This document shows positions 6,221 to 64,000 of a stretch of 64,000 bases of DNA, in pieces. The stretch covers positions 14,029 to 78,028 of the forward strand of contig CAMDLY010000003.1 of assembly GCA_945902115.1 (NCBI GenBank), given 5' to 3'. This DNA is from Lishizhenia tianjinensis (GTDB lineage: Bacteria > Bacteroidota > Bacteroidia > Flavobacteriales_D > Crocinitomicaceae). The first letter of the stretch is position 1, and each line of letters opens with the position of its first letter. The notes under the pieces were generated by a model, which saw only the letters and a list, made by a program, of their open reading frames with translations, was not told the DNA's origin and did no database searches. The translations under genes were made by a program, and so were the position numbers.

Positions 6221-7902
6221 TACACCAATTTTCTGTATTTAATGCGCTTAGGACCTTGGTCACCCATTCGTTTTTTTCGATTTTCTTCGTATTCAGAATA
6301 AGAACCTTCAAACCAATAAACTTGAGAATCACCTTCAAACGCCAATATATGTGTACAAATCCGATCTAAGAACCACCTATCGTGAGAAATGACCACTGCA
6401 CAGCCTGCAAAGCTCTCAATTCCTTCCTCTAGTGCACGCAAAGTGTTTACGTCTATGTCATTCGTTGGTTCATCCAACAACAACACATTCGCTTCGGTCT
6501 TCAATGTCATGGCCAAGTGCAATCTATTTCTCTCACCTCCGGATAGTACTCCAACTTTCTTGTTTTGATCTGCTCCCATGAAATTAAACTTACTGAGGTA
6601 TGCGCGTGAAATTATTTTTTGATTGCCAATTTCAATATATTCGAGGCCGTTAGAAACCACATCAAAAACAGTTTTCTCTGGATGAATATCTTTGTGTGTT
6701 TGGTCTACGTATCCTATTTTCACAGTATCTCCAACCAAAAATTCCCCTTTATCTTGATTAAGTTCATTCATAATCATTTTGAAGATTGTTGTTTTACCAG
6801 CTCCATTAGGGCCAATCACCCCTACAATTCCGGCAGGAGGTAATTTAAAATTCAAGTCGTCATATAATAATTTATCACCAAATGCTTTCGCCACATTTAC
6901 TGCTTCGATCACATTTTGGCCTAGTCTCGGTCCATTAGGAATTGGAATTTCCAACTTAGCTTCTTTGTCTTTAGCGTCTTCTGCTAACAGTTTGTCGTAA
7001 TTCTGTAAACGCGCTTTACTTTTAGCCTGTCTCGCTTTAGGATTCATACGCACCCACTCCAACTCTCTCGCCAACATCTTTTGACGCTTCGACTCAGTTT
7101 TTTCCTCTTCTGAGAGGCGCTGACCCTTTTGCTCTAACCATGAGGAATAATTTCCTTTCCACGGAATACCTTCCCCTCTATCTAATTCAAGTATCCAACC
7201 CGCAACATTATCTAAGAAATAACGGTCGTGAGTAACTGCAATCACTGTTCCTTTGTACTGTTGTAAATGTTGCTCCAACCAATCTATTGATTCGGCATCC
7301 AAGTGGTTGGTAGGTTCATCTAGCAATAAAATATCAGGATTTTTCAATAGTAATCGGCAAAGCGCTACCCTTCTTTTTTCACCACCGGACAAAGTGGATA
7401 TTAACTGATCGTCTGGTGGACAGCGCAAAGCATCCATCGCTCTTTCTAGTTTACTATCCAATTCCCATGCATCGAGGGCATCAATTTTATCTTGTACCTC
7501 CCCTTGTCTCGCAATAAGTTTATCCATTTTATCGGGATCATTCAGCACATCTTCATCCATGAAAGCGGCATTAATTTCCTCGTATTCTTTGAGAATATCA
7601 ACAGTTTCCTGAACTCCCTCCATGACAACTTCCTTAACGGTTTTGGTCAACTCTAAATCAGGCTCTTGCGGTAAATAACCTACCGTATAACCGGCAGAAA
7701 AAACAACGTCACCCTGATAAGCTTGATCCAATCCTGCAATAATTTTCATCACTGTGGACTTTCCAGAACCATTTAAACCTATGATTCCGATTTTTGCGCC
7801 ATAAAAAAATGACAAATAAATATTCTTGATAATTTGTTTTCCTTGCGGGGTGGTTTTTGATACTCCCACCATGGAGAAAATGATTTTTTTGTCGTCTGAC
7901 AT
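6220..7902 (-). CDS. ettA: ABC-F protein, energy-dependent translational throttle EttA
   Basis: 560 aa with two ABC cassettes and no transmembrane domain. The cassette motifs are GLNGSGKST with LSGGEKRR, and GPNGAGKTT with LSGGERNR. Confidence 0.9.
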   Translation of the reverse strand: MSDDKKIIFSMVGVSKTTPQGKQIIKNIYLSFFYGAKIGIIGLNGSGKSTVMKIIAGLDQAYQGDVVFSAGYTVGYLPQEPDLELTKTVKEVVMEGVQETVDILKEYEEINAAFMDEDVLNDPDKMDKLIARQGEVQDKIDALDAWELDSKLERAMDALRCPPDDQLISTLSGGEKRRVALCRLLLKNPDILLLDEPTNHLDAESIDWLEQHLQQYKGTVIAVTHDRYFLDNVAGWILELDRGEGIPWKGNYSSWLEQKGQRLSEEEKTESKRQKMLARELEWVRMNPKARQAKSKARLQNYDKLLAEDAKDKEAKLEIPIPNGPRLGQNVIEAVNVAKAFGDKLLYDDLNFKLPPAGIVGVIGPNGAGKTTIFKMIMNELNQDKGEFLVGDTVKIGYVDQTHKDIHPEKTVFDVVSNGLEYIEIGNQKIISRAYLSKFNFMGADQNKKVGVLSGGERNRLHLAMTLKTEANVLLLDEPTNDIDVNTLRALEEGIESFAGCAVVISHDRWFLDRICTHILAFEGDSQVYWFEGSYSEYEENRKKRMGDQGPKRIKYRKLV

Positions 7903-7905
7903 AAC

Positions 7906-9318
7906 TTATTTTTTAGTTGTTGAACACTGAAAAGTTGATTTTGGCAGTGTTGTTTTTGCAATTGCATTGTAACCCCCTATCACATCTACCAACTGATGAT
8001 AACCTCTGGATTTTAGAATTGATGCTGCAATCATACTGCGATACCCCCCTGCACAATGCAATACAATCGGATTGTCTTTGGGGTAAGATGAGAAATTCTC
8101 ATTGATAAAATCTAAAGGTAAGGTTTGGGCTATTTCGAGGTGCTCGGCTTCAAACTCTCCCGGCTTTCGAACATCAATAATTGGCTGACTAAACCATTCT
8201 CTTTCATTTTCCAACTGCGCAGCCGTGATACGTTCTACTGAGGCGATTTCATTTCCTGCAGCACTCCAAGTGGCAAATCCTCCTTTAAGATAACCTAAAA
8301 CGTTGTCATACCCAACGCGTGCTAATCTTTTAACGGCCTCTTCTTCACGTCCAATTTCAGTAATGAGCAATATTGCTTGTTTTATATCCGAAATTAATGC
8401 TCCAACCCAGGGCGCAAACTGACCGTCTAAACCAATAAAAATACTATTTGGAATATGGCTATCCGCAAAATCTTGCGCACTCCTTGTATCTAAAATAAGT
8501 ACATCTTCACCAGATGCATGTTGTTCAAAGGCTTCAGTAGATAACGGATTCACTCCCCTTTTCATTACATCGTTGATCGAATCATAACCCGATTTATTCA
8601 ACATAACATTTTTTCCAAAATAGCTCGGAGGAGGTAGTAGCCCCTCGGTTAATTCTTTTATAAATTCCTCTTTTGACATGTCTTCTCTGAGTGCATAGTT
8701 GGATATCTTTTGCTCACCGATTGTTCCTGTAGTTTCTTTGGACATATTTTTTCCACACGCACTTCCTGCTCCATGAGCGGGATAGACCGTAACGTCATTA
8801 GGTAGAGTCATTAATTTTGTTCTGAGAGAGTCAAATAATAATCCTGCAAGGCCTTCCTGCGTCATCGAAGCGGCCTTTTGTACTAAGTCGGGTCTACCAA
8901 CATCACCGATAAACAAAGTGTCTCCCGTGAAAACTGCTGCTTCTTTATTGTTTTCATCGAGTAATAAGTAACATGTCGATTCCATCGTGTGTCCGGGAGT
9001 GTGTAAAACTTTTATCGTCAAATCTCCGACGTGTAAAAGTTCTCCATCTAAAGCGGAGTGATACGAATAGTTCGTTGCCGCATTTGGACCGAATACGATT
9101 GTTGCGCCAGTTGCTTTTGAAAGATCGAGGTGACCAGAAACAAAATCCGCATGGAAATGGGTTTCTAAGATATATTTGATTTTAACTCCATCCCGCGCTG
9201 CTCTTTCCAAGTAAGGTTGCGTTTCACGCAAGGGGTCAATAATAACAGCTTCTCCGTTGGAGTGGATGTAATATGCTCCTTGTGCTAAACATCCCGTATA
9301 AATTTGTTCTATAAACAT
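7906..9318 (-). CDS. MBL-fold hydrolase fused to rhodanese domains (persulfide dioxygenase-like)
   Basis: 470 aa with the metallo-beta-lactamase motif THFHADFVSGH. The C-terminal rhodanese active-site loop is HCAGGYRS. Confidence 0.8.
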   Translation of the reverse strand: MFIEQIYTGCLAQGAYYIHSNGEAVIIDPLRETQPYLERAARDGVKIKYILETHFHADFVSGHLDLSKATGATIVFGPNAATNYSYHSALDGELLHVGDLTIKVLHTPGHTMESTCYLLLDENNKEAAVFTGDTLFIGDVGRPDLVQKAASMTQEGLAGLLFDSLRTKLMTLPNDVTVYPAHGAGSACGKNMSKETTGTIGEQKISNYALREDMSKEEFIKELTEGLLPPPSYFGKNVMLNKSGYDSINDVMKRGVNPLSTEAFEQHASGEDVLILDTRSAQDFADSHIPNSIFIGLDGQFAPWVGALISDIKQAILLITEIGREEEAVKRLARVGYDNVLGYLKGGFATWSAAGNEIASVERITAAQLENEREWFSQPIIDVRKPGEFEAEHLEIAQTLPLDFINENFSSYPKDNPIVLHCAGGYRSMIAASILKSRGYHQLVDVIGGYNAIAKTTLPKSTFQCSTTKK

Positions 9319-9339
9319 ATTAGATAATACTATTGACTA

Positions 9340-29899: not shown

Positions 29900-30580
29900 T
29901 TGCTACAAGAAATTTACGATAAAGTCCGTGAAAAATTCTCATCTCTCGAGGGAAGTCATGATTGGTTTCACATAGAAAGAGTTTTACAAAATGCTAGATT
30001 AATTCAAGAAAAAGAAGGGGGTGATCTACTTATTATCGAACTCGGAGCTTTATTACACGACATTGCTGATCATAAGTTTCATGACAACGACTTCGAAATA
30101 GGTTCTAAAGTCGCCAAACGTTGGGTGATGGAGTTTTTTAACAACGAAGAATTAGCCTGTAAAATTGAAGAAATTGTTTCCGCTGTATCTTATAAAGGTG
30201 CCAACGTGAAAGATATTTCTCTTTCTCTAGAAGGAAAAATTGTCCGCGATGCAGATAGATTAGATGCCATTGGTGCTGTTGGCATTGCTCGAGCATTCGC
30301 CTATGGTGGTTCTAAACATCGTCCACTTTTTAATGAAAGAACAACGCCGGTGCTGCATAACTCAAAAGAAAGCTATGCTGCGAGTAAATCACATACAATA
30401 AACCATTTCTATGAGAAGCTTCTCCTCTTGGTAGATCGCATGGAAACAAATACGGCCAGAAGCATTGGTAATGAACGTCAGGTATTTATGCTCAACTTCC
30501 TTGAACAGTTTTTCAAAGAGGTAAATTTTTCAATCGAAGATTCGGTGTTCGACTTAACAAGTTTTCACGATCAACGGTGA
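29900..30580 (+). CDS. HD-domain phosphohydrolase
   Basis: 226 aa with the motifs LLHDIADHK and RDADRLDAIGA. The apparent start codon is TTG. Confidence 0.75.
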   Translation: MLQEIYDKVREKFSSLEGSHDWFHIERVLQNARLIQEKEGGDLLIIELGALLHDIADHKFHDNDFEIGSKVAKRWVMEFFNNEELACKIEEIVSAVSYKGANVKDISLSLEGKIVRDADRLDAIGAVGIARAFAYGGSKHRPLFNERTTPVLHNSKESYAASKSHTINHFYEKLLLLVDRMETNTARSIGNERQVFMLNFLEQFFKEVNFSIEDSVFDLTSFHDQR

Positions 30581-54844: not shown

Positions 54845-56044
54845 ATGCCAAAAATCTCAGTAAAAGCTGAAGCCATGCCGGCATCTCCAATAAGGAAACT
54901 TGTTCCGTTTGCAGAGGCAGCAAAAAAACGTGGTACAACCGTTTATTATTTAAATATCGGACAACCTGACATTGAGACTCCCGAAATCGCGCTTAATGCC
55001 ATTAAAAATTTAGACAGAAAAGTTATTGAATATTCTCATTCTGCGGGCTTCGAAAGTTATAGAATGAAATTGTCAGCCTCTTATATTAAACAGGGATTAC
55101 CGGTAAATACAGAAGATATTTTAGTCACGACGGGAGGTTCTGAAGCTCTTATTTTTGGTTTTATGACTACCTGTAATCCAGGTGACGAAGTGATTATCCC
55201 AGAACCATTTTATGCCAACTACAATGGCTTTGCCGTAACCGCTGGACTGAACGTTGTTCCAGTAACTTCGAGCATAGAAAGTGGCTTTGCTTTACCACCA
55301 GTCGAAGAAATAGAGAAAAAAATTACACCAAAGACTAAAGCTATTGTCATATGTAATCCTGGTAACCCAACAGGCTATTTATACTCTCAAAGTGAATTAG
55401 AGCAACTGCGAGATATCGTCAAAAAATATGATTTATTTCTTTTCGCAGACGAGGTCTACAGAGAATTTTGTTACGATGGAGCACAACCATTTTCTGTAAT
55501 GAATCTCGCCGGTATTGAAAATAATGTCGTGATGATTGACTCTGTTTCAAAACGCTATTCGATGTGTGGAGCAAGGATTGGTGCTATGGTCACGAAGAAT
55601 AAAGATGTCATGGCTGCAGCACTCAAATTTGGACAAGCAAGACTCTCACCTCCAACAATAGATCAGATAGCTGCTGAGGCCGCATTGGATACGCCGCAGA
55701 GCTACTTTGACAATGTTGTAGAAGAGTATGTTGAAAGACGAAATATAATGGTTGACGGATTAAATGAAATCCCCGGTGTGTTTTGTCCAAAGCCGTCTGG
55801 AGCGTTTTATTGTGTAGCAAGCTTTCCTGTTGACGATGCTGAAAAATTTTGTCAATGGTTGTTGCAAGATTTTAGTTACAATGGCCAAACGGTTATGATG
55901 GCTCCTGCTAATGGATTCTACTCAACAAAAGGCGCGGGAAAAAAGGAAGCACGAATAGCTTATGTTCTCAATAAAGAATCACTGAGAAATGCTGTTCAGT
56001 GTTTAAAAAAAGCACTTGAAGAATACCCCGGTAAAACAGTCTGA
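54845..56044 (+). CDS. PLP-dependent class I aminotransferase (aspartate aminotransferase-like)
   Basis: 399 aa with the PLP-lysine motif DSVSKRYSMCGARIG and NPGNPTG. Confidence 0.88.
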   Translation: MPKISVKAEAMPASPIRKLVPFAEAAKKRGTTVYYLNIGQPDIETPEIALNAIKNLDRKVIEYSHSAGFESYRMKLSASYIKQGLPVNTEDILVTTGGSEALIFGFMTTCNPGDEVIIPEPFYANYNGFAVTAGLNVVPVTSSIESGFALPPVEEIEKKITPKTKAIVICNPGNPTGYLYSQSELEQLRDIVKKYDLFLFADEVYREFCYDGAQPFSVMNLAGIENNVVMIDSVSKRYSMCGARIGAMVTKNKDVMAAALKFGQARLSPPTIDQIAAEAALDTPQSYFDNVVEEYVERRNIMVDGLNEIPGVFCPKPSGAFYCVASFPVDDAEKFCQWLLQDFSYNGQTVMMAPANGFYSTKGAGKKEARIAYVLNKESLRNAVQCLKKALEEYPGKTV

Positions 56045-56048
56045 AACA

Positions 56049-56519
56049 ATGACTGTTGAGGATATATTGGCAGCTGTTTCTGAAGAAAGGAAGGACAGCT
56101 TTAATTTGCTCCGAAAAACGATTATAGACAACCTTCCACAAGGATTCGAGGAAACTGTGAGTTACGGAATGATCAGTTATGTAGTCCCTCACAAAATATA
56201 CCCGCAGGGATACCATTGCAATCCTAACATTGCGTTACCCTTTCTAAGTATTGCCTCTCAAAAGAATACCATAAATTTATATCATATGGGTATTTATGCT
56301 GACAGCAACTTATATGACTGGTTCGTATCGGAATTTCCGAAACATACTACTCAAAAATTAGCTATAGGGAAATCCTGTATTCGGTTTAAGAAAATGAACG
56401 AAATTCCTTTTAATCTATTAGGTTCACTTGTTGGTAAAATGACAACCAATGAATGGATCAACCTCTATGAGCGTACATTCAAAAAACAACTTAGCACACA
56501 ACTTTTTGCGACAATATAG
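56049..56519 (+). CDS. DUF1801-like protein (chromosomal paralog of the 63435-63890 gene)
   Basis: About 156 aa, counted from the internal ATG (MTVEDIL). By hand alignment over ~145 aa it is identical to the 63435-63890 product at somewhat more than half of positions. Shared blocks include YVVPH.IYP.GYHC, ASQKN.IN.YHMGIYAD and GKSCIRFKK. Confidence 0.6.
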   Translation: MTVEDILAAVSEERKDSFNLLRKTIIDNLPQGFEETVSYGMISYVVPHKIYPQGYHCNPNIALPFLSIASQKNTINLYHMGIYADSNLYDWFVSEFPKHTTQKLAIGKSCIRFKKMNEIPFNLLGSLVGKMTTNEWINLYERTFKKQLSTQLFATI

Positions 56520-57936: not shown

Positions 57937-58716
57937 ATGGCTGAAGGTGTTTTGACAATATTAGGTTCAGGAACTTCTCAAGGCGTTCCGGTAATCGCTT
58001 GCAATTGTGCTACATGCAAATCTGAGGACCCGAAAGATAATAGAACAAGAAGTAGTGTTTTGATACATGCTGACGGTAGACAATTTGTTATTGATACAGG
58101 ACCAGATTTTCGTCATCAAATGCTACGAGAGAATGTTCAGTTCTTAAATGGTGTTATTTTCACGCACCAGCACAAGGACCATATTGCCGGACTTGACGAT
58201 GTCAGAGCTTTTAATCACAAACAAAATGAAGCAATGCCCGTTTACGCAACTGCTGCAGTTAATGAGGCATTACACCGAGAATATCATTATATTTTTTCCG
58301 AAGAAAGTTACCCAGGTGTTCCTAAGCTAAGCGTCGAACTGATTGACCTTGCACCGTTCTCGATAACAAATTCTTTGCGTTTAACACCTATACTCGTAAA
58401 CCATTACAAGATGCCGGTACTGGGTTTCCGTATGGGTGATCTGACTTATATTACTGATGCTAAAACTATTGCAGAAAGTGAAAAAGAAAAAATTATAGGA
58501 TCTAAGACATTAATAATTAATGCTTTACATATTTATCCACACATATCACATTTTAATTTAGAGGAGGCTTTGGCATTTATCGATGTGGTTAAACCAGAAA
58601 AAGCTTTTCTCACTCATATTTCTCATTTATTTGGAAAACACGAAGACATTTTTCGCTTATTGCCCTCGCATGTAGAACCAGCCTTTGACGGCTTGAAAAT
58701 ACCTTTTTACTACTAA
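57937..58716 (+). CDS. MBL-fold metallo-hydrolase (PhnP-like)
   Basis: 259 aa with the motif FTHQHKDHIAGLDD and an N-terminal Cys cluster (CNCATC). Confidence 0.8.
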   Translation: MAEGVLTILGSGTSQGVPVIACNCATCKSEDPKDNRTRSSVLIHADGRQFVIDTGPDFRHQMLRENVQFLNGVIFTHQHKDHIAGLDDVRAFNHKQNEAMPVYATAAVNEALHREYHYIFSEESYPGVPKLSVELIDLAPFSITNSLRLTPILVNHYKMPVLGFRMGDLTYITDAKTIAESEKEKIIGSKTLIINALHIYPHISHFNLEEALAFIDVVKPEKAFLTHISHLFGKHEDIFRLLPSHVEPAFDGLKIPFYY

Positions 58717-58717
58717 A

Positions 58718-58848
58718 GCTTAACGTTTTGCGGCTACCCGAAGGGCGGGACTTTTACCACAAAACTTGATTTGAAAAACTAATGTTTGATTAACCACAAA
58801 ACTGTCTTTGGAACACGAACCCTCGCCTTTTGGGTAGGTGCTGTTAGC
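58718..58848 (-). repeat. attC-like structured repeat, copy 1 (131 nt), terminal site of the array
   Basis: On the + strand it reads GCTTAAC ... GTTAGCA. The terminal helix is GCT(T)AACG/TGTTAGC, followed by an 8x4 internal loop. A 16-bp stem pairs 58734-58749 (CTACCCGAAGGGCGGG) with 58822-58837 (CCTCGCCTTTTGGGTAG-type arm). Internal modules TTAACCAC and AAACTGTCT are shared with copies 2 and 3. It ends 7 nt before the phzF-family stop codon. Confidence 0.7.
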
Positions 58849-58855
58849 AGTAGTT

Positions 58856-59644
58856 TTATTCTGTCCAAAATTCTCCAATTGAATATGTTTTTGCTTGTCC
58901 ACTAATAATCACTCGGTCTCCTTTGTCTTCACAATACAACTTGCCCAATCGTTCAGAAACTTGTTGAGCATAAAGTTCTTTTTTATTTAGTCTTTTCGCC
59001 CAAAATGGAATTAAAGAACAATGTGCAGAACCTGTTACAGGGTCTTCTAAAATTGATGCTTGCGGTGTGAAAAATCTTGAAATGAAATCGCAATTGTCTC
59101 CAATTGCTGTTACAATTACACCTCCTGGGTCAAGATTTATTTGGTCGAATAATTGTCTGTCAATTTTTATGTTTCTAACTTCTGTTTCATTTTCATACAC
59201 CAAAACATAGTCTCTTGATTTCAAAATTTCTTTCGGTTGAATATTTAAGGATTTTGAAATTGTCGTTGGTAAGATGTCGACAATAGGCATTCTTGATGGG
59301 AAGTTCATTTTATATTTTCCATTTTCAATTTTGACAATTAAGTCGCCACTTAAAGTTTCAAACACAATTTTATCTTTCTTATAGTCAAGAATTGTCGCTA
59401 AACCATGAGCAGTTGCAAGTGTAGCGTGACCGCACAAATCCATTTCAATTTCAGGCGTAAACCATCGTAAATGGATTTTTTCTCCTTTGTCAACAAAAAA
59501 AGCAGTTTCAGCAACTGCGTTTTCTTTTGCTATTTTCAACAAGATTTCGTCTGACAACCAATTGTCAAGTGGCACAACACAAGCAGGATTTCCTCCAAAA
59601 ATTGTGTCCGTAAATGCGTCAATTTGATATATATTATGTTTCAC
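58856..59644 (-). CDS. PhzF-family isomerase
   Basis: 262 aa with N-terminal IYQIDAFT...FGGNPACVV and C-terminal TGSAHC. The start codon is GTG. Confidence 0.8.
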   Translation of the reverse strand: MKHNIYQIDAFTDTIFGGNPACVVPLDNWLSDEILLKIAKENAVAETAFFVDKGEKIHLRWFTPEIEMDLCGHATLATAHGLATILDYKKDKIVFETLSGDLIVKIENGKYKMNFPSRMPIVDILPTTISKSLNIQPKEILKSRDYVLVYENETEVRNIKIDRQLFDQINLDPGGVIVTAIGDNCDFISRFFTPQASILEDPVTGSAHCSLIPFWAKRLNKKELYAQQVSERLGKLYCEDKGDRVIISGQAKTYSIGEFWTE

Positions 59645-59661
59645 TATGTTCTGTTTAAAAT

Positions 59662-59718
59662 TACTGCTAACGAGTATATACTAACAATAAAACGATACTT
59701 ATCTAATCAATGTTGGGT
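59662..59718 (-). repeat. degenerate or truncated attC-like site (boundaries uncertain)
   Basis: TACTGCTAAC at 59662-59671 is the exact reverse complement of the distal box of copy 1 (GTTAGCAGTA, 58843-58852). A GTTGGGT box (GTTRRRY) lies at 59712-59718. The long stem of the full copies is missing, and further family-like fragments (TGAACCATTCTTTGT around 59787) follow. Confidence 0.35.
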
Positions 59719-59872
59719 GACTAAGGATGGTTTTAACATCCAATTTTGTATGACTAATTTAACTGCAATTTACAAATTATGAAAGGTGAACCATTCTTTG
59801 TTCTTCTTTTATTGCTAATTGAAGAACAAAATTATAGGTCGGACTTAAGCTTTCATAAATTGGTTTTATAAA

Positions 59873-60559
59873 CTAGTCAAGTTGTTCGAATGAACGAATT
59901 GCATTGTTTGAACTAAAATAGAGCGTGTAATTTTTACCTACTGTAAAAACTTGGCTAACAAAACTGAATGCAAATGCTTGCTCGCCCATCACTACATATT
60001 CAATTTTGCTGCGGTATTCTATTTTTATCGGACCGCTTATTTTGTCAACCGTTCCTTGTTGCGCAGCTTTACGTGCTTTCCAATAGAAAAAAAGGCCAAT
60101 GGCACTTAGGGGCAAAAAACTAAAGATGGAAAGGACTATCCCCCTTTCTACCATCAGAAGGATTAAAACACTAAAGATTACTGAAAGTGCACCAAAGACA
60201 ACCAAGATAGTTAAACCCGCTTTTTGGGTTTGCTTTTTTTGCCTATCGCTTAAAAATCCTTTTCTATTTATCTTCAAATCCTCTTCAGTAAAACTAAAAA
60301 AAGGATAATTTACCCCTTTGCTTTTTGTTTTTGGTTGAATGGGGGTGGTCTCGTTTTGAGCAATTTTTGCTATACGATCTAGCGTTTGGTTGCCAAAGGA
60401 TTTGTATTCTATAATTTCATCTGCAGTTAAATGAATGTATTTACTATACATACCAACACTGCCGCAAATAACTTCTAAAACATAATCATCATTTAGATTA
60501 TATAAGACATAATTCCAAGGACTTTTGGTTATTTCTGTATAATTGTCGAGGTTAATCAT
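59873..60559 (-). CDS. hypothetical membrane protein (two central transmembrane helices)
   Basis: 228 aa ORF. It has a soluble N-terminal ~100 aa, two hydrophobic helices (LTILVVFGALSVIFSVLILLMV and VLSIFSFLPLSAIGLFFYW) and a soluble C-terminal ~60 aa. I recognise no family. Confidence 0.45.
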   Translation of the reverse strand: MINLDNYTEITKSPWNYVLYNLNDDYVLEVICGSVGMYSKYIHLTADEIIEYKSFGNQTLDRIAKIAQNETTPIQPKTKSKGVNYPFFSFTEEDLKINRKGFLSDRQKKQTQKAGLTILVVFGALSVIFSVLILLMVERGIVLSIFSFLPLSAIGLFFYWKARKAAQQGTVDKISGPIKIEYRSKIEYVVMGEQAFAFSFVSQVFTVGKNYTLYFSSNNAIRSFEQLD

Positions 60560-60575
60560 GCTTTTCCAGATGTTG

Positions 60576-61619
60576 TTACTTTAACTTTTCACAGTTGATT
60601 TCACCTTCTAATTGAAAGCGTTCAAATTCCGAATCACTAAACGCACCATTACCATTATTAATTCTACGGAAATAAACATCACCAAAAAAGCATTTATCAT
60701 TTTCTGAATAAACAATAGTACACCTAGCTGCTTTTGATTTTATGGTGCCATCTACTTTATTGGTTATTGAATAAGATTGAACATAATTTATATATTTTAC
60801 TTTTGAACCAGGTTGCGCATTCTCAAACAATTCTATGGCATGCGCTTTTGATACTTCTGCATCTTTTTCATTAAAACTGTTTGACTGGTAACCCTCTGGA
60901 AGTTCATTATGAACATAATGTTTTGTTTTTCGGGAATTAGTGGACGGGTAACGTACATCAAACAAATACTGTGATCTCAACCCTTTTAACTTTAATGGTT
61001 GATTATTTTTTTTTAATTCACCCTTTGAGTTGGTATATTCAATGGTAATGATGGTGTTAGCGTCTTTTGGACTATCGCTAATTGCCATATTGTTAACTGC
61101 ATCAACACTACTTTTGATGTATGAGTTGTTTTCAAAATCAGGAAAGGAAGATGCCGCATTAACATCTGGTAGTAAATCGAAAAAAAGATAGGTTGTTCCT
61201 TTTCCTTCTGGATCATAGTTGACCGCAAACACACTTAATTCACCAGGATTTGATTGGTTTTTGGATTTTAATTCCATTACTGCTTTTACTTTTGTTTGGT
61301 TTAAAGCACCAAACCAACATTTCCAAGCAATTGCACCCGACTTTTTTGCAGTTGCGTTATGTGCACCTGTGTGTTTTGTATGGTATAAAAATAAATTGTT
61401 TCCAGATGGCGTGCCGAACAAATCAAAAAAACCTGCATCATCAATTTTGATAACACCATATGCATTTTGCTTGGTTATATCTATTTCGTTGATGCCCACC
61501 AATGTGGAGGTTGCGGTATCTTCAATTACAAAAGGTTTTTCAGTAATAATTATCGTTTGTCCAACGGAGAAAAAGGGAGACAAAAAAAACAATATTGCAA
61601 GATGGTTGAGTTTTTTCAT
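60576..61619 (-). CDS. hypothetical secreted protein
   Basis: About 347 aa from the internal ATG (MKKLNHLAILFFLSPFFSVGQ, signal-like). I recognise no motif. It ends 16 nt upstream of the start of the 59873-60559 ORF. Confidence 0.5.
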   Translation of the reverse strand: MKKLNHLAILFFLSPFFSVGQTIIITEKPFVIEDTATSTLVGINEIDITKQNAYGVIKIDDAGFFDLFGTPSGNNLFLYHTKHTGAHNATAKKSGAIAWKCWFGALNQTKVKAVMELKSKNQSNPGELSVFAVNYDPEGKGTTYLFFDLLPDVNAASSFPDFENNSYIKSSVDAVNNMAISDSPKDANTIITIEYTNSKGELKKNNQPLKLKGLRSQYLFDVRYPSTNSRKTKHYVHNELPEGYQSNSFNEKDAEVSKAHAIELFENAQPGSKVKYINYVQSYSITNKVDGTIKSKAARCTIVYSENDKCFFGDVYFRRINNGNGAFSDSEFERFQLEGEINCEKLK

Positions 61620-61640
61620 TTCTAATTGATTTTGGTTAAA

Positions 61641-61648
61641 CAAATATA
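61641..61648 (-). promoter_or_regulatory. -7 promoter box TATATTTG inside a cassette
   Basis: Exact TAnnTTTG match on the minus strand, 21 nt upstream of the ATG at 61619. Confidence 0.4.
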
Positions 61649-61801
61649 GAAAAGTTTTTATTGTTTGCAAGAAAACAAATTTCGTAATTCAATTTAACCA
61701 TACGTTGCAAAAACGTAGAAATTCTTACACCACAAAATATTTATTCCAATCTATTTTTTAAACGATAGCCCTTTTTCTTTTAATGCTTTTTGTAAAATGG
61801 T

Positions 61802-61946
61802 GCATAACGTTTTGGCGCTTGGCGAAGAAGCGGATTTCGAAGCACTAAACTGTCTGCCATCACTAAACTTGATACGAAGCACAATCCCGATAGCTATCGG
61901 GATCATTTAACCACTGAACCGCCAATTTCTTGTAGGTGCTGTTAGC
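61802..61946 (-). repeat. attC-like structured repeat, copy 2 (145 nt, irregular stem)
   Basis: On the + strand it reads GCATAAC ... GTTAGCC with terminal helix GC(A)TAACG/TGTTAGC. It shares TAACGTTTTG and TAGGTGCTGTTAGC with copy 1. It shares ATTTAACCACTGAAC (15/15) and TACGAAGCAC (10/10) with copy 3. It contains the 20-nt perfect palindrome ATCCCGATAGCTATCGGGAT (61884-61903) and lies 30 nt past the stop codon of the T9SS-cargo gene. Confidence 0.7.
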
Positions 61947-61976
61947 CACAGTGAAGTTTGTCGTTGTACAGTCGTG

Positions 61977-63206
61977 TCAGTCAGTGATTACTAGTTTGCT
62001 TTGTGTAATAATTTTATTGTCTTTTGTTAAGCGAATAAAATAAATTCCGCTTGCTAAATTATCCCTGTCTATTTTTATTTCATTTCCGGAAATCCTATTT
62101 ATTGTTTTTACCTTTTGCCCAAACACATTATAAAGGTTGACTTCTGCCTCATGCAACATGGAGTTACTTTGAATAGTTGTAAAATCATTAAATGGATTTG
62201 GAGAAATGCTTAATTGATTTACATCGGTTTGGTTTTCTAAAACAGCAGTAACTAAAGTCAAATCACAATCCAAAATAAAAGGTTGGGAGTTGTAATTGTT
62301 TTTCCAGATTGTTACCACTTCAGGTATGAACTTCCACTCCACTTTGTTTTGAGAAACCAATACGTTAATGGAGTCCATGAGGTCATCCATTTTTACGTTA
62401 ATGAAACCGGGTACTCCAAGATAGCTTTCTCTAAAAAAAACACTTGTGCAATAAAAACCGTTTGCTGGGGCCGCGCCAGATTGAATAGCATTTACTATAT
62501 AGCGAATTTCATTCATTACAGTAGTAATATTTGTAGTGTCATGCACTTCTATCTTACAACCCTGCCCGTAATTGATAAGGTGATTAGAAGGTTGGTGTGT
62601 GAAAAACGAAGTCATAGATTGAGGTTTCCACATTCCGTAATCTACCGGATCATTTGTATGGCCCGGTGTTGCTGCCCCCCAAAGGATTTCAGGCGCCCAT
62701 GTATAATTTGGGAATACAACTCCTGCCGTAGGGTTTTGATAATCTTGCCAGTCGTGTCCACTTTGAAGCTGGCTATATAAAAACCCACTCATTACAGTTC
62801 CGGGATTTACACCCAAACTATCATGAAGTTTTGCAACATCTGCATTGTTGTATGTGCTTTCGTGCGCATGAGGATCACATTCTACATTATTTATGTAAGC
62901 GGAGGAAATGTATTTTAATACATTTTGACCACCTGTGTTCATCTGAACAGTTCCTGTATCATATTTTATTACCGCTCTCAACAGTATATGATCGCTTCCT
63001 AAATGCCACTTAGCTCCTTTAGCAGTAGCCAATTGGGCCATCTGTATTATTCTGGGTCTTACGCTGTAAAACGAAGGAGGGTTAGTTAAGTAAGTGTAAT
63101 TTTCTTCGTTATGCGAAACAATGTTGATATATAATTTTGGAAGTTGAGCCTGAGCAATAAAAAATGTGAATGTAAACTGCAAGGCAAGTAGTAATTTCTT
63201 TTTCAT
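61977..63206 (-). CDS. secreted protein with a T9SS C-terminal sorting domain; N-terminal domain unknown, possibly a metal-dependent hydrolase
   Basis: About 409 aa from the internal ATG (MKKKLLLALQF...AQAQ). The Por-type tail is LSISPNPFNDFTTIQ...LASGIYFIRLTKDNKIITQSKLVITD. Candidate metal ligands are SHNEE and DPHAHE. Confidence 0.7.
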   Translation of the reverse strand: MKKKLLLALQFTFTFFIAQAQLPKLYINIVSHNEENYTYLTNPPSFYSVRPRIIQMAQLATAKGAKWHLGSDHILLRAVIKYDTGTVQMNTGGQNVLKYISSAYINNVECDPHAHESTYNNADVAKLHDSLGVNPGTVMSGFLYSQLQSGHDWQDYQNPTAGVVFPNYTWAPEILWGAATPGHTNDPVDYGMWKPQSMTSFFTHQPSNHLINYGQGCKIEVHDTTNITTVMNEIRYIVNAIQSGAAPANGFYCTSVFFRESYLGVPGFINVKMDDLMDSINVLVSQNKVEWKFIPEVVTIWKNNYNSQPFILDCDLTLVTAVLENQTDVNQLSISPNPFNDFTTIQSNSMLHEAEVNLYNVFGQKVKTINRISGNEIKIDRDNLASGIYFIRLTKDNKIITQSKLVITD

Positions 63207-63292
63207 TTTCTTTTTGTCAGTGATTATAGTGCTGACTCTGCACTTTTTAGTTGAATCCAAGGTCAATAATATTCTGTCTTTGTTGCATTGTG

Positions 63293-63423
63293 GCTAACGG
63301 TTCTCAGCTATACGCAGGCAGGGATTTAACCACTGAACTTCCCACGAAGAACTGAACTTTAAATTTATCACTTTCCTGTCCTACGAAGCACGAAACCCCT
63401 GCTTGCGTATAGGTGATGTTAGC
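63293..63423 (-). repeat. attC-like structured repeat, copy 3 (131 nt)
   Basis: On the + strand it reads GGCTAAC ... GTTAGCG with terminal helix GCTAACG/TGTTAGC and an 8x4 internal loop. A 16-bp stem pairs 63308-63323 (CTATACGCAGGCAGGG) with 63397-63412 (CCCTGCTTGCGTATAG). It lies 12 nt past the DUF1801 stop codon. Confidence 0.7.
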
Positions 63424-63434
63424 GGGTCGTTGTT

Positions 63435-63890
63435 CTATTTTTTCATTGTTTTTTCGTAAATATTTATCCATTCTTTGACACTTATTTTCTTCATTAAGTC
63501 ACCAATGAGTTTGTATGGAATTTCGTCTAGCTTTTTAAAACGAATACAACTTTTTCCCATATCAAGTTTTTGCTTAGTGTGCTTTGGATATTCCGTTACA
63601 AACCATTCCAATAATTTGGTGTCTGCATAAATGCCCATATGGTAAAAATTAATAGAATTTTTCTGCGAAGCAAGTCCTGCAAATGGTAGTGGTTCACTTG
63701 GTTTACAATGATAACCTGCTGGATAAATTGTATGAGGGACAACATATCCCAAACCACCATAACTAATGGCTGCTTCAAAACCGTCCGGCAGGTTCTTTAC
63801 TATAACTTCGTGTAGTTTGTTAAAAGGTTCTGACCTGTCTTTGGGAAGGTTTGTCAGAATTTCGTTTACAGTTTTTCCGTTTGCTTTCAT
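63435..63890 (-). CDS. DUF1801-like protein (cassette-borne paralog)
   Basis: 151 aa. See the alignment with the 56049-56519 product. Confidence 0.6.
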   Translation of the reverse strand: MKANGKTVNEILTNLPKDRSEPFNKLHEVIVKNLPDGFEAAISYGGLGYVVPHTIYPAGYHCKPSEPLPFAGLASQKNSINFYHMGIYADTKLLEWFVTEYPKHTKQKLDMGKSCIRFKKLDEIPYKLIGDLMKKISVKEWINIYEKTMKK

Positions 63891-63902
63891 ATGTGATTAG
63901 TG

Positions 63903-64000
63903 TTAACGATGTTGGTCAAGTAAAATCACATTTCCGTCAGGGTCGGTTAGCATTAGGCTTGCAGGCCCTTTGGTTTTTTCGTCAGCTTCGCTTGTAAGTT
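63903..64000 (-). CDS. VOC/glyoxalase-family protein, C-terminal fragment (partial at the window edge)
   Basis: Hand translation of the minus strand gives ...LTSEADEKTKGPASLMLTDPDGNVILLDQHR-stop. The DPDGN.I.L ending is typical of the VOC fold. Only 32 codons are visible. Confidence 0.4.
   Translation of the reverse strand, partial: LTSEADEKTKGPASLMLTDPDGNVILLDQHR

Follow-up and report, generated by a model that had tools for sequence, protein, structure and literature searches.

The last ~5.3 kb (positions 58718–64000) of a 64-kb stretch of contig CAMDLY010000003.1 from Lishizhenia tianjinensis are very probably the promoter-distal stretch of an integron-type cassette array on the chromosome of a freshwater member of the Bacteroidota, and the array is of a kind that departs from the canonical one. 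The whole stretch of 64,000 nucleotides is referred to as the window, and loci and proteins compared with it are given as L and P numbers. An earlier inspection of the letters of the window (the sequence-only reading) had proposed such an array, with its distal end here and no recombinase in the window, and this is borne out by unit boundaries that fall at GTT cores in many unrelated contexts. Along the minus strand the order is VOC and DUF1801 genes, site c3, a gene for a protein with a type IX secretion system (T9SS) tail, site c2, genes for proteins of 355 and 228 aa, an attI-like remnant, a PhzF gene, site c1, and the end of the array abutting an MBL-fold gene (Table 1).

From 58856 as far as the window edge, all sizeable open reading frames (ORFs) lie on the minus strand, as the sequence-only reading had it, and its description of three related repeats (c1, c2 and c3) also holds. 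These are 131, 145 and 131 nt long, lie 7, 30 and 11 nt past stop codons, and on the plus strand start with G[CG][TAC]TAAC and finish with GTTAGC; the gaps of 12 and 16 nt between genes contain no copy. In c1 the R′ box GCTTAAC(G) is at the low end and the R″ box (T)GTTAGC at the high end, the plus strand being the bottom strand. The word TAGGTG[C/A]TGTTAGC is present at all three repeats and elsewhere in the 64 kb only at 30270, with two mismatches (chance expectation 0.17). A covariance model of the site family, R1, matches exactly c1, c2 and c3 in the 64 kb, all on the plus strand, with a next-best E of 0.73. R1 is specific to this family, attC being absent from Rfam; an Rfam scan of 58000–64000 at E up to 10 returned chance matches only (snoR07 and a microRNA precursor). 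A canonical stand-in built from the 60-nt sites of class 1 cassettes would mark down 130-nt sites for their length, and a failure to match it would say little.

The copies had also been described as structured palindromes, which is correct for c1 and c3 but not for c2. In the c1 fold a 7-bp R helix is followed by a 4-nt bulge and then a long stem (-17.4 kcal/mol on the plus strand versus -15.8 on the minus strand), and c3 as a long imperfect hairpin (z -5.2; -24.2 versus -19.8 kcal/mol). Site c2 keeps both conserved ends, but its arms fail to pair (fold z -0.87) and many of the R1 pairs are broken. Its R″ and R′ halves derive from different site types, with matches at L007 1–119 and at L009 4202–4331 / L041 6181–6310; a second hybrid site is known at L005 1534–1673. 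Within c2 there is a perfect 18-nt palindrome, TCCCGATAGCTATCGGGA (61885–61902), present once in the window and also intergenic in two unrelated Bacteroidota contigs (L004 ~4690 and L005 ~8–25), which may be a small motif in its own right, mobile or regulatory.

R1 was trained on 29 sites from other contigs, each less than 70% identical to the window copies. An early scanner for AAC...GTT with an arm duplex proved too noisy at -14 kcal/mol, notably in the GC-rich L001 and L083; its threshold was then set at -22 kcal/mol or below, and it was later replaced by R1. The 29-site alignment has a mean column identity of 47% and a 20-pair consensus in which 89.6% of cells pair (a percentage raised by the scanner, as discussed below) and compensatory changes occur in 15 of the 20 pairs. 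The covariation score is 0.593, versus 0.182 in shuffles (reached in 0 of 500) and 0.08–0.17 with partners slid. Covariation involving many pair types argues for a structure under selection and not for copy-and-paste identity.

The core boxes originally proposed survive in part. AACG...TGTT is invariant in 39 of 39 sites, the better-folding strand opening with NNYAAC-G (5′) and closing with T-GTTRNN (3′), with a family end consensus of (G/C)(C/A)YAACG...TGTTR(G/T), but the canonical 7-mers are rare (RYYYAAC in 5/39 sites, GTTRRRY in 7/39). The 7-bp R helix closes with an invariant G.T wobble, where the opposite strand would have an A.C mismatch. In 23 of 31 folded sites the adjoining bulge comprises 4 nt of the 5′ arm with nothing unpaired opposite (the 3′ arm contributes 0 nt in 28 of 31), and beyond it are a 3–4 bp helix, often a 1 x 1 mismatch, a stem of at least 12 bp and a large loop. 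A second conserved G.T is located in the long stem (25/29 sites). In 28 of 39 sites the bottom strand has the greater stability (mean advantage 1.57 kcal/mol) and duplex energies are consistently lower on it; the corresponding advantage of classical attC sites is 2.12 kcal/mol (PMC5027507). Classical sites also have 5–6 unpaired bases per arm and an extrahelical G and T on the R″–L″ arm (PMC5027507). Neither the consensus structure nor individual folds contain a conserved 3′-arm bulge of extrahelical bases, the family lacks the 5–6 x 5–6 unpaired central spacer, and the two conserved G.T wobbles stand in for the strand mark. Loops across the family share direct-repeat words (e.g. GGTTCAGTGG and TTCGTGCTTCG on the gene strand), which is unexpected of a ‘variable’ terminal structure, and the c1 loop contains a tandem direct repeat (58753–58782 / 58790–58819, 77% identity).

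The repeat family had been thought host-specific, which it is not: it is common to Flavobacteriales, Sphingobacteriales, the Saprospiraceae-like Opimibacter and others. Copies are arrayed rather than dispersed, both in the 64 kb and throughout 678 kb of related loci, at densities such as 10 sites in 8 kb (L002) and 8 sites in 21 kb (L022).

Comparison with other genomes defines the exchanged units. An exact 35-nt search across species-representative genomes yielded six contigs, whose labels are Flavobacteriales, Candidatus Opimibacter, Bacteroidales, Sphingobacteriaceae, Fluviicola and ‘Limnohabitans’, the last probably mis-binned. The PhzF unit is intact and 95.8–99.4% identical in L001, L002 (twice), L004, L005 and L006, and degraded into two pieces (95.9% and 89.7%) in L003. 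In all six contigs the homology to the window is limited to 58721–59671/4 between unrelated flanks, and on the gene strand the unit is bounded by GTTAGC upstream and GTTAAGC downstream. Similarly, the unit of VOC, DUF1801 and c3 is 99–100% identical on at least 10 metagenome contigs with differing neighbours on both sides; in seven contigs it is at the GTTAGC core, 63293, that the homology breaks off, and an identical DUF1801 protein is encoded on 19. The T9SS-tail cassette is 99.8% identical in L010 and L013. The junction reads GTT^GGC in L012 versus GTT^AGC in the others (the caret marks the junction throughout), which places the exchange point in or beside the GTT.

The locus varies among relatives and is not syntenic and invariant. 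L010 and L019 both come from ERZ937126 and carry 99–100% identical cassettes in differing contexts, and L019, a 93.6-kb contig of a nearly identical strain, begins inside the array, as expected of a locus that varies within the population. Near-identical cassettes in different contexts, together with assemblies that break in the array, point to recent exchange in populations. Cassettes are also duplicated, with PhzF occurring twice in L002 and in L022, and the same gene can be followed elsewhere by an unrelated site: for the T9SS-tail gene (99.8%) and PhzF (90%) the homology ends just after the R″ word GCTAACA (window 61933 and 58842; L010 2493–2726; L022 10797–10927).

Three of the contigs compared have peculiarities of their own. 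In L001 (4881–6504) a lone PhzF cassette with a GC content of 0.41 is located within DNA of 0.60–0.68 and is flanked by a 213-nt duplication (95% identity), with an upstream ORF that has a T9SS-like tail when read by eye; either the cassette was inserted in a Bacteroidota genome of high GC, or the contig is a chimera of long-read assembly. L006 (JASGCW010000049.1, a metagenome-assembled genome labelled Limnohabitans sp.) has a GC content of 0.35 and a Bacteroidota-type cassette array, and is probably mis-binned. An IS3-family element (HTH_Tnp_1 + rve) is situated near the array start of a 2.27-Mb contig (L021–L024, ~8030–9258) and recurs in L021, a different contig, beside the same cassettes (a 170–177 aa gene and PhzF).

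A degenerate copy of the repeat had been placed at 59662, but R1 finds nothing in this gap (59672–59872), which has no more of the repeat than its GTTAGC core. Ahead of this core, 48 nt align in register with attI junctions of related loci (31/48 ungapped versus L030, counted by eye), and local alignment of the element with L030 has p ~0.004. It matches the attI consensus GTATA(A/T)A..A^GTT as well as the CACCCAA.AT word at the centre of junctions found downstream of integrases, and on these sequence features it looks like an attI remnant and not a degenerate attC.

The attI-type junctions themselves have the form ...TATAAACAA^GTT. L030, L031 and L034 represent one chromosomal locus and are identical through ...ATAAACAA^GTT / ...GTCAGACATATAAACAA^GTT and divergent afterwards, as an attI junction would leave them. 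An integrase gene was absent from all of the arrays looked at first. In L029 a 29-codon remnant ending in ...TTEIYIHVSTKSIQQIKSPFDDL and a stop codon is directly upstream of the first cassette on the same strand (7689–7778), and further remnants are at L030 6337–6561 and L036 10001–10216. A database search with the L029 remnant peptide returned 69 proteins (P0121–P0189) from Flavobacterium, Algoriphagus, Pedobacter and others, all of them 37–74 aa C-terminal fragments of tyrosine recombinases encoded just upstream of small same-strand genes that differ between contigs. As all 69 are short, truncated integrase 3′ ends beside an intact-looking attI are evidently common across genera.

Complete platforms link the same site family to a dedicated integrase family and an attI. 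L037, from ERZ27280299 in the same freshwater sample set, has a full-length integrase followed 102 nt on by ...GGGTATAAAGGA^GTTATAGG. Scanning the family alignment against metagenome contigs gave 80 integrase loci, 16 of which contain 41 R1 matches. In 16 loci (close relatives) the integrase stop codon is followed, 81–109 nt on, by an attI junction, with paired repeats and a CCCAATTTGGG-like word before it and R1 matches after it on the same strand. L043 is complete, with a 379-aa integrase, an attI and eight R1 matches (nine scanner sites) in the next 10 kb, and its R″ ends, CCTAACAGCACCT, are those of c1 and c2. Two more L043 sites in the same orientation are upstream of the integrase (8028–8157 and 9195–9324), which indicates that platforms embedded inside arrays occur. 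In the distant relatives L063, L057, L056, L062 and L082 the array is upstream, in the classical divergent layout. The motif TAnnTTTG, which we take to be the Bacteroidota -7 promoter element, is present 10–15 nt after the integrase or remnant stop codon and upstream of attI in 8 of the 16 loci (L029–L031, L034, L038–L041) and is a candidate cassette promoter.

The sequence-only reading had allowed for a non-canonical recombinase, and the linked family is of this kind. Its members score 199–211 bits on TIGR02249 (P0193, P0196, P0199, P0204, P0216, P0226 and L043; cut-off 265), in two stretches that skip positions ~180–230, versus 508.6 bits in one stretch for an IntI1 control; the IntI1 query was validated by 799.5 bits on NF011946. 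Full-length relatives are 350–384 aa long. Aligned with IntI1 (31% identity) they lack its 31-aa and 10-aa catalytic-domain insertions and have 75–110 extra N-terminal residues, and the C-terminal fragment of the family (86 aa) is 46.5% identical to IntI1 residues 245–330. Scores on XerA_Arch (NF040815) are borderline at 216–224 bits against a cut-off of 220; those on XerC (178–190) and XerD (187–204) compare with cut-offs of ~330, and none of the curated family models is clearly cleared. Every integrase or remnant beside the site family (L029–L047, L052, L076) belongs to this insertion-less family. A classical IntI was sought by tblastn with IntI1 in the window and the loci collected first and none was found; two weak window matches are unrelated, the one at ~52600 falling in the SRP54 gene by mapping onto L019.

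The predicted structure of the integrase (pLDDT 84.7) has an N-terminal domain of beta-beta-alpha-beta-beta-alpha topology. The best structural matches are XerA and VchIntIA (IntI4), with PDB 5hxy and 4a8e among the Xer folds. Full-length lambda integrase aligns structurally over ~350 columns, a modelled likeness which hints that the extra N-terminal domain could be an arm-type DNA-binding one, and this domain may read the attI repeats. The missing IntI insertion plausibly goes together with the missing extrahelical bases in the sites.

In the mechanism we propose, a cassette consists of one or two minus-strand genes plus an imperfect palindrome of ~130 nt acting as attC. A tyrosine recombinase would cut at the conserved AAC/GTT of the site end, such that gene and site move together. 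The platform would comprise an integrase with an IntI/Xer-like core, no IntI insertion and an extra N-terminal beta-alpha domain, with attI downstream and cassettes on the same strand; that serving the window array would be encoded beyond 64000 or elsewhere in the genome. By analogy with known integrons, we infer that the bottom strand folds as single-stranded DNA, that cassettes are excised as circles and inserted at attI, and that the linked family provides the acting enzyme. The window locus itself looks partly decayed: c2 is a non-pairing hybrid and an attI-like remnant without an adjoining integrase gene lies between cassettes.

We also incline, by a narrower balance, towards a broader proposal: that the Bacteroidia have their own widespread class of integron, which surveys have missed or labelled as integrase-less clusters. 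This class would have an IntI/Xer-like integrase without the insertion and with an added, possibly arm-type, N-terminal domain; sites with a 4-nt bulge on the arm expected by attC analogy to be cleaved, and with bottom-strand G.T wobbles; and PhzF and VOC+DUF1801 cassettes circulating among orders. By function the system is an integron (attI, cassettes, GTT crossover and bottom-strand bias), but it fails three defining tests, as it has no IntI domain, no symmetric spacer and no extrahelical bases.

Several observations weigh against an integron-type array. There is no integrase gene within the window, and most arrays (L004, L022, L029, L030–L036) have a truncated integrase remnant or none, leaving activity in this genome unproven. 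The scanner demanded arm complementarity in the sites used for the covariation test, which inflates the percentage paired and not the number of pair types. The breaks right after R″ are not predicted by a simple crossover model confined to R′, and suggest either exchange at the second AAC too or replacement of the site body.

The alternatives differ in how much of this they accommodate. An array that was built by the system described here and is now immobile, its cassettes passing vertically or by homologous recombination only, is a serious but doubtful possibility; it would be a dead relic in the manner of CALINs (attC sites grouped together with no integron integrase, a category of IntegronFinder; PMC9024848). 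The unpaired hybrid c2, the solitary attI-like remnant and the widespread integrase remnants (the 69 short ORFs with L029, L030 and L036) are what such a relic would leave, whereas 99–100% identical cassettes in differing contexts of the same project or sample (L010 and L019, ERZ937126), assemblies breaking inside the array and full-length integrases in the same freshwater sample set (L037, ERZ27280299) argue for mobility. A classical integron, in which a canonical IntI just past 64000 recombines these as divergent attC sites, seems quite unlikely. The AAC/GTT cores, the GTT crossover, the palindromes after promoterless genes and the stabler bottom strand would all fit it, and the region past 64000 lies outside the window; against this, the linked integrases and remnants are all insertion-less, the tblastn search of the window and the loci collected first gave no classical IntI, and the sites have neither the 5–6 x 5–6 spacer nor the extrahelical bases with which the IntI domain makes contact (PMC5027507).

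We regard as very improbable that host dimer resolvases act on the sites, as they do on Xer-mobilised modules, for example those with pdif sites on Acinetobacter plasmids. It is true that the linked recombinase scores best on the XerA model and against XerA folds, but its XerC and XerD scores are far under the cut-offs, its gene is physically tied to attI and arrays and encodes the extra N-terminal domain, and the sites are 130-nt hairpins rather than 28-bp dif-like duplexes. Hardly credible at all is an origin as dispersed repeats of the repetitive extragenic palindrome (REP) or miniature inverted-repeat transposable element (MITE) kind, or as long terminator hairpins, unrelated to gene mobility. 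Such elements would likewise be intergenic, palindromic, just past stop codons and share loop words; the window has just three copies, in one array, and elsewhere there are arrays downstream of an integrase, with unit boundaries at GTT, no T-run, covariation of many pair types and no credible Rfam match.

The coordinates of the array and its surroundings are listed in Table 1.

Table 1. Features of the distal array end and the adjoining backbone, in window coordinates (the caret marks the junction).
Feature	Position	Strand	Evidence and remarks
MBL-fold gene	57937..58716	+	PF12706 1.3e-32; convergent, chromosomal backbone, its stop codon at 58716; delimits the array on the distal side
attC-like site c1, of the PhzF cassette	58718..58848	+	R1 72.7 bits, E 5.4e-16
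PhzF cassette, the mobile unit of gene and site	58724..59670	-	From the TT of the GTTAGC upstream as far as the G of GTTAAGC
PhzF-family isomerase gene, 262 aa, cargo	58856..59644	-	Pfam PF02567 2e-46; TIGR00654 115 bits
attI-like junction remnant ending ...TAGTATATACTC^GTTAGC	59672..59746	-	attI consensus match; no R1 match
Function-unknown gene, 228 aa	59873..60559	-	No Pfam, NCBIfam or PADLOC match
Function-unknown gene, 355 aa as called in L017, probably secreted	60576..61643	-	No family match
Hybrid, non-pairing attC-like site c2	61802..61946	+	R1 31.4 bits, E 9.4e-6
T9SS-sorted secreted protein gene, 409 aa, cargo	61977..63206	-	PF18962 / TIGR04183 C-terminal sorting domain
attC-like site c3, of the VOC+DUF1801 cassette	63293..63423	+	R1 67.1 bits, E 1.3e-14
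DUF1801 gene, 151 aa, second of the two-gene cassette	63435..63890	-	PF08818 1.4e-16
VOC/glyoxalase gene, 3′ end, first of the VOC+DUF1801 cassette, runs off the window	63903..64000	-	99–100% identity to L007–L016

In L007–L016 a 166-aa PF00903 gene precedes the DUF1801 gene across a 12-nt gap. The genes for the 228-aa and 355-aa proteins, which have no match in PADLOC, NCBIfam or Pfam, recur together in L017 and L018. The backbone around the MBL-fold gene is also kept in L019 and L020. It includes a second DUF1801 gene (56016–56519, plus strand), a paralog of the cassette gene and 73% nt-identical to it over 188 nt, which forms an inverted repeat (56236–56423 / 63501–63688); the cassette gene thus has a resident paralog 7 kb away.

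Integrons are the model for gene capture through folded single-stranded DNA, and the IntI domain and its extrahelical-base contacts are regarded as essential; a large, evidently recently active cassette system of the Bacteroidota lacks both. If this is confirmed, the cassette-array lifestyle would be independent of the canonical IntI–attC recognition code, and a second, independent structure-specific recombination system would be available for experiment and tool use. The system also gives access to a reservoir of accessory genes that circulate among Bacteroidota abundant in freshwater and wastewater. IntegronFinder surveys list only integrase-alone elements and one complete integron, in Salinibacter, for the Bacteroidetes (PMC9024848), and this reported near-absence would then be partly a detection artefact. 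Reviews count the Bacteroidota among the integron-bearing phyla (PMC8618304, PMC9668308). No description of this Bacteroidia cassette system was found in the literature searched, the coverage of which is incomplete.

Among tyrosine recombinases, the family may fall in the ‘integron-like’ subgroup of simple tyrosine recombinases (PMC8138268). Smyshlyaev et al. 2021 describe the insertion as not fully conserved in that subgroup and yet essential for integron function and, in the portion of the paper available to us, do not tie insertion-less members to cassette arrays or to attI/attC-type sites (PMC8138268). The array resembles a CALIN in having at least two attC-type sites and no integrase in the window, and many related arrays have remnants only; here the sites number three and the 58 kb to one side contain no recombinase, the promoter-proximal side being outside the window. 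The CALIN label, however, is an operational one that depends on the IntI profile and the canonical attC model, whereas these sites are linked to a distinct integrase family that would not count as IntI. Archaeal XerA and bacterial XerC/D are the best matches to the core in sequence and fold and likewise have no catalytic-domain insertion. Xer recombinases resolve dimers at one short duplex dif site, whereas this family adjoins attI and cassette arrays and has the extra N-terminal domain.

The integrons of Treponema, Chlorobi and Planctomycetes (Boucher et al. 2007, Cury et al. 2016) reportedly have the integrase co-oriented with the cassettes, as here. Their integrases are said to possess the IntI additional domain, on the basis of which they were recognised, whereas the Bacteroidota family lacks it. 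The likeness to Vibrio cholerae repeats (VCRs) drawn by the sequence-only reading holds for function but not for architecture. As in the sedentary chromosomal integrons of Vibrio (VCRs, VchIntIA), arrays are long and same-stranded with small, mostly uncharacterised cassettes, and sites of ~120–130 nt are related within an array, have a GTT crossover and a better-folding bottom strand, and are accompanied by cassette duplications. In contrast to Vibrio, the integrase has no IntI insertion and has an added N-terminal domain, and in close relatives it is co-oriented with the cassettes, with attI downstream of its stop codon. In the sites, a 4 x 0 bulge occupies the place of the 5–6 x 5–6 spacer (PMC5027507), and instead of a conserved extrahelical G/T there is the invariant AACG...TGTT with its G.T wobble.

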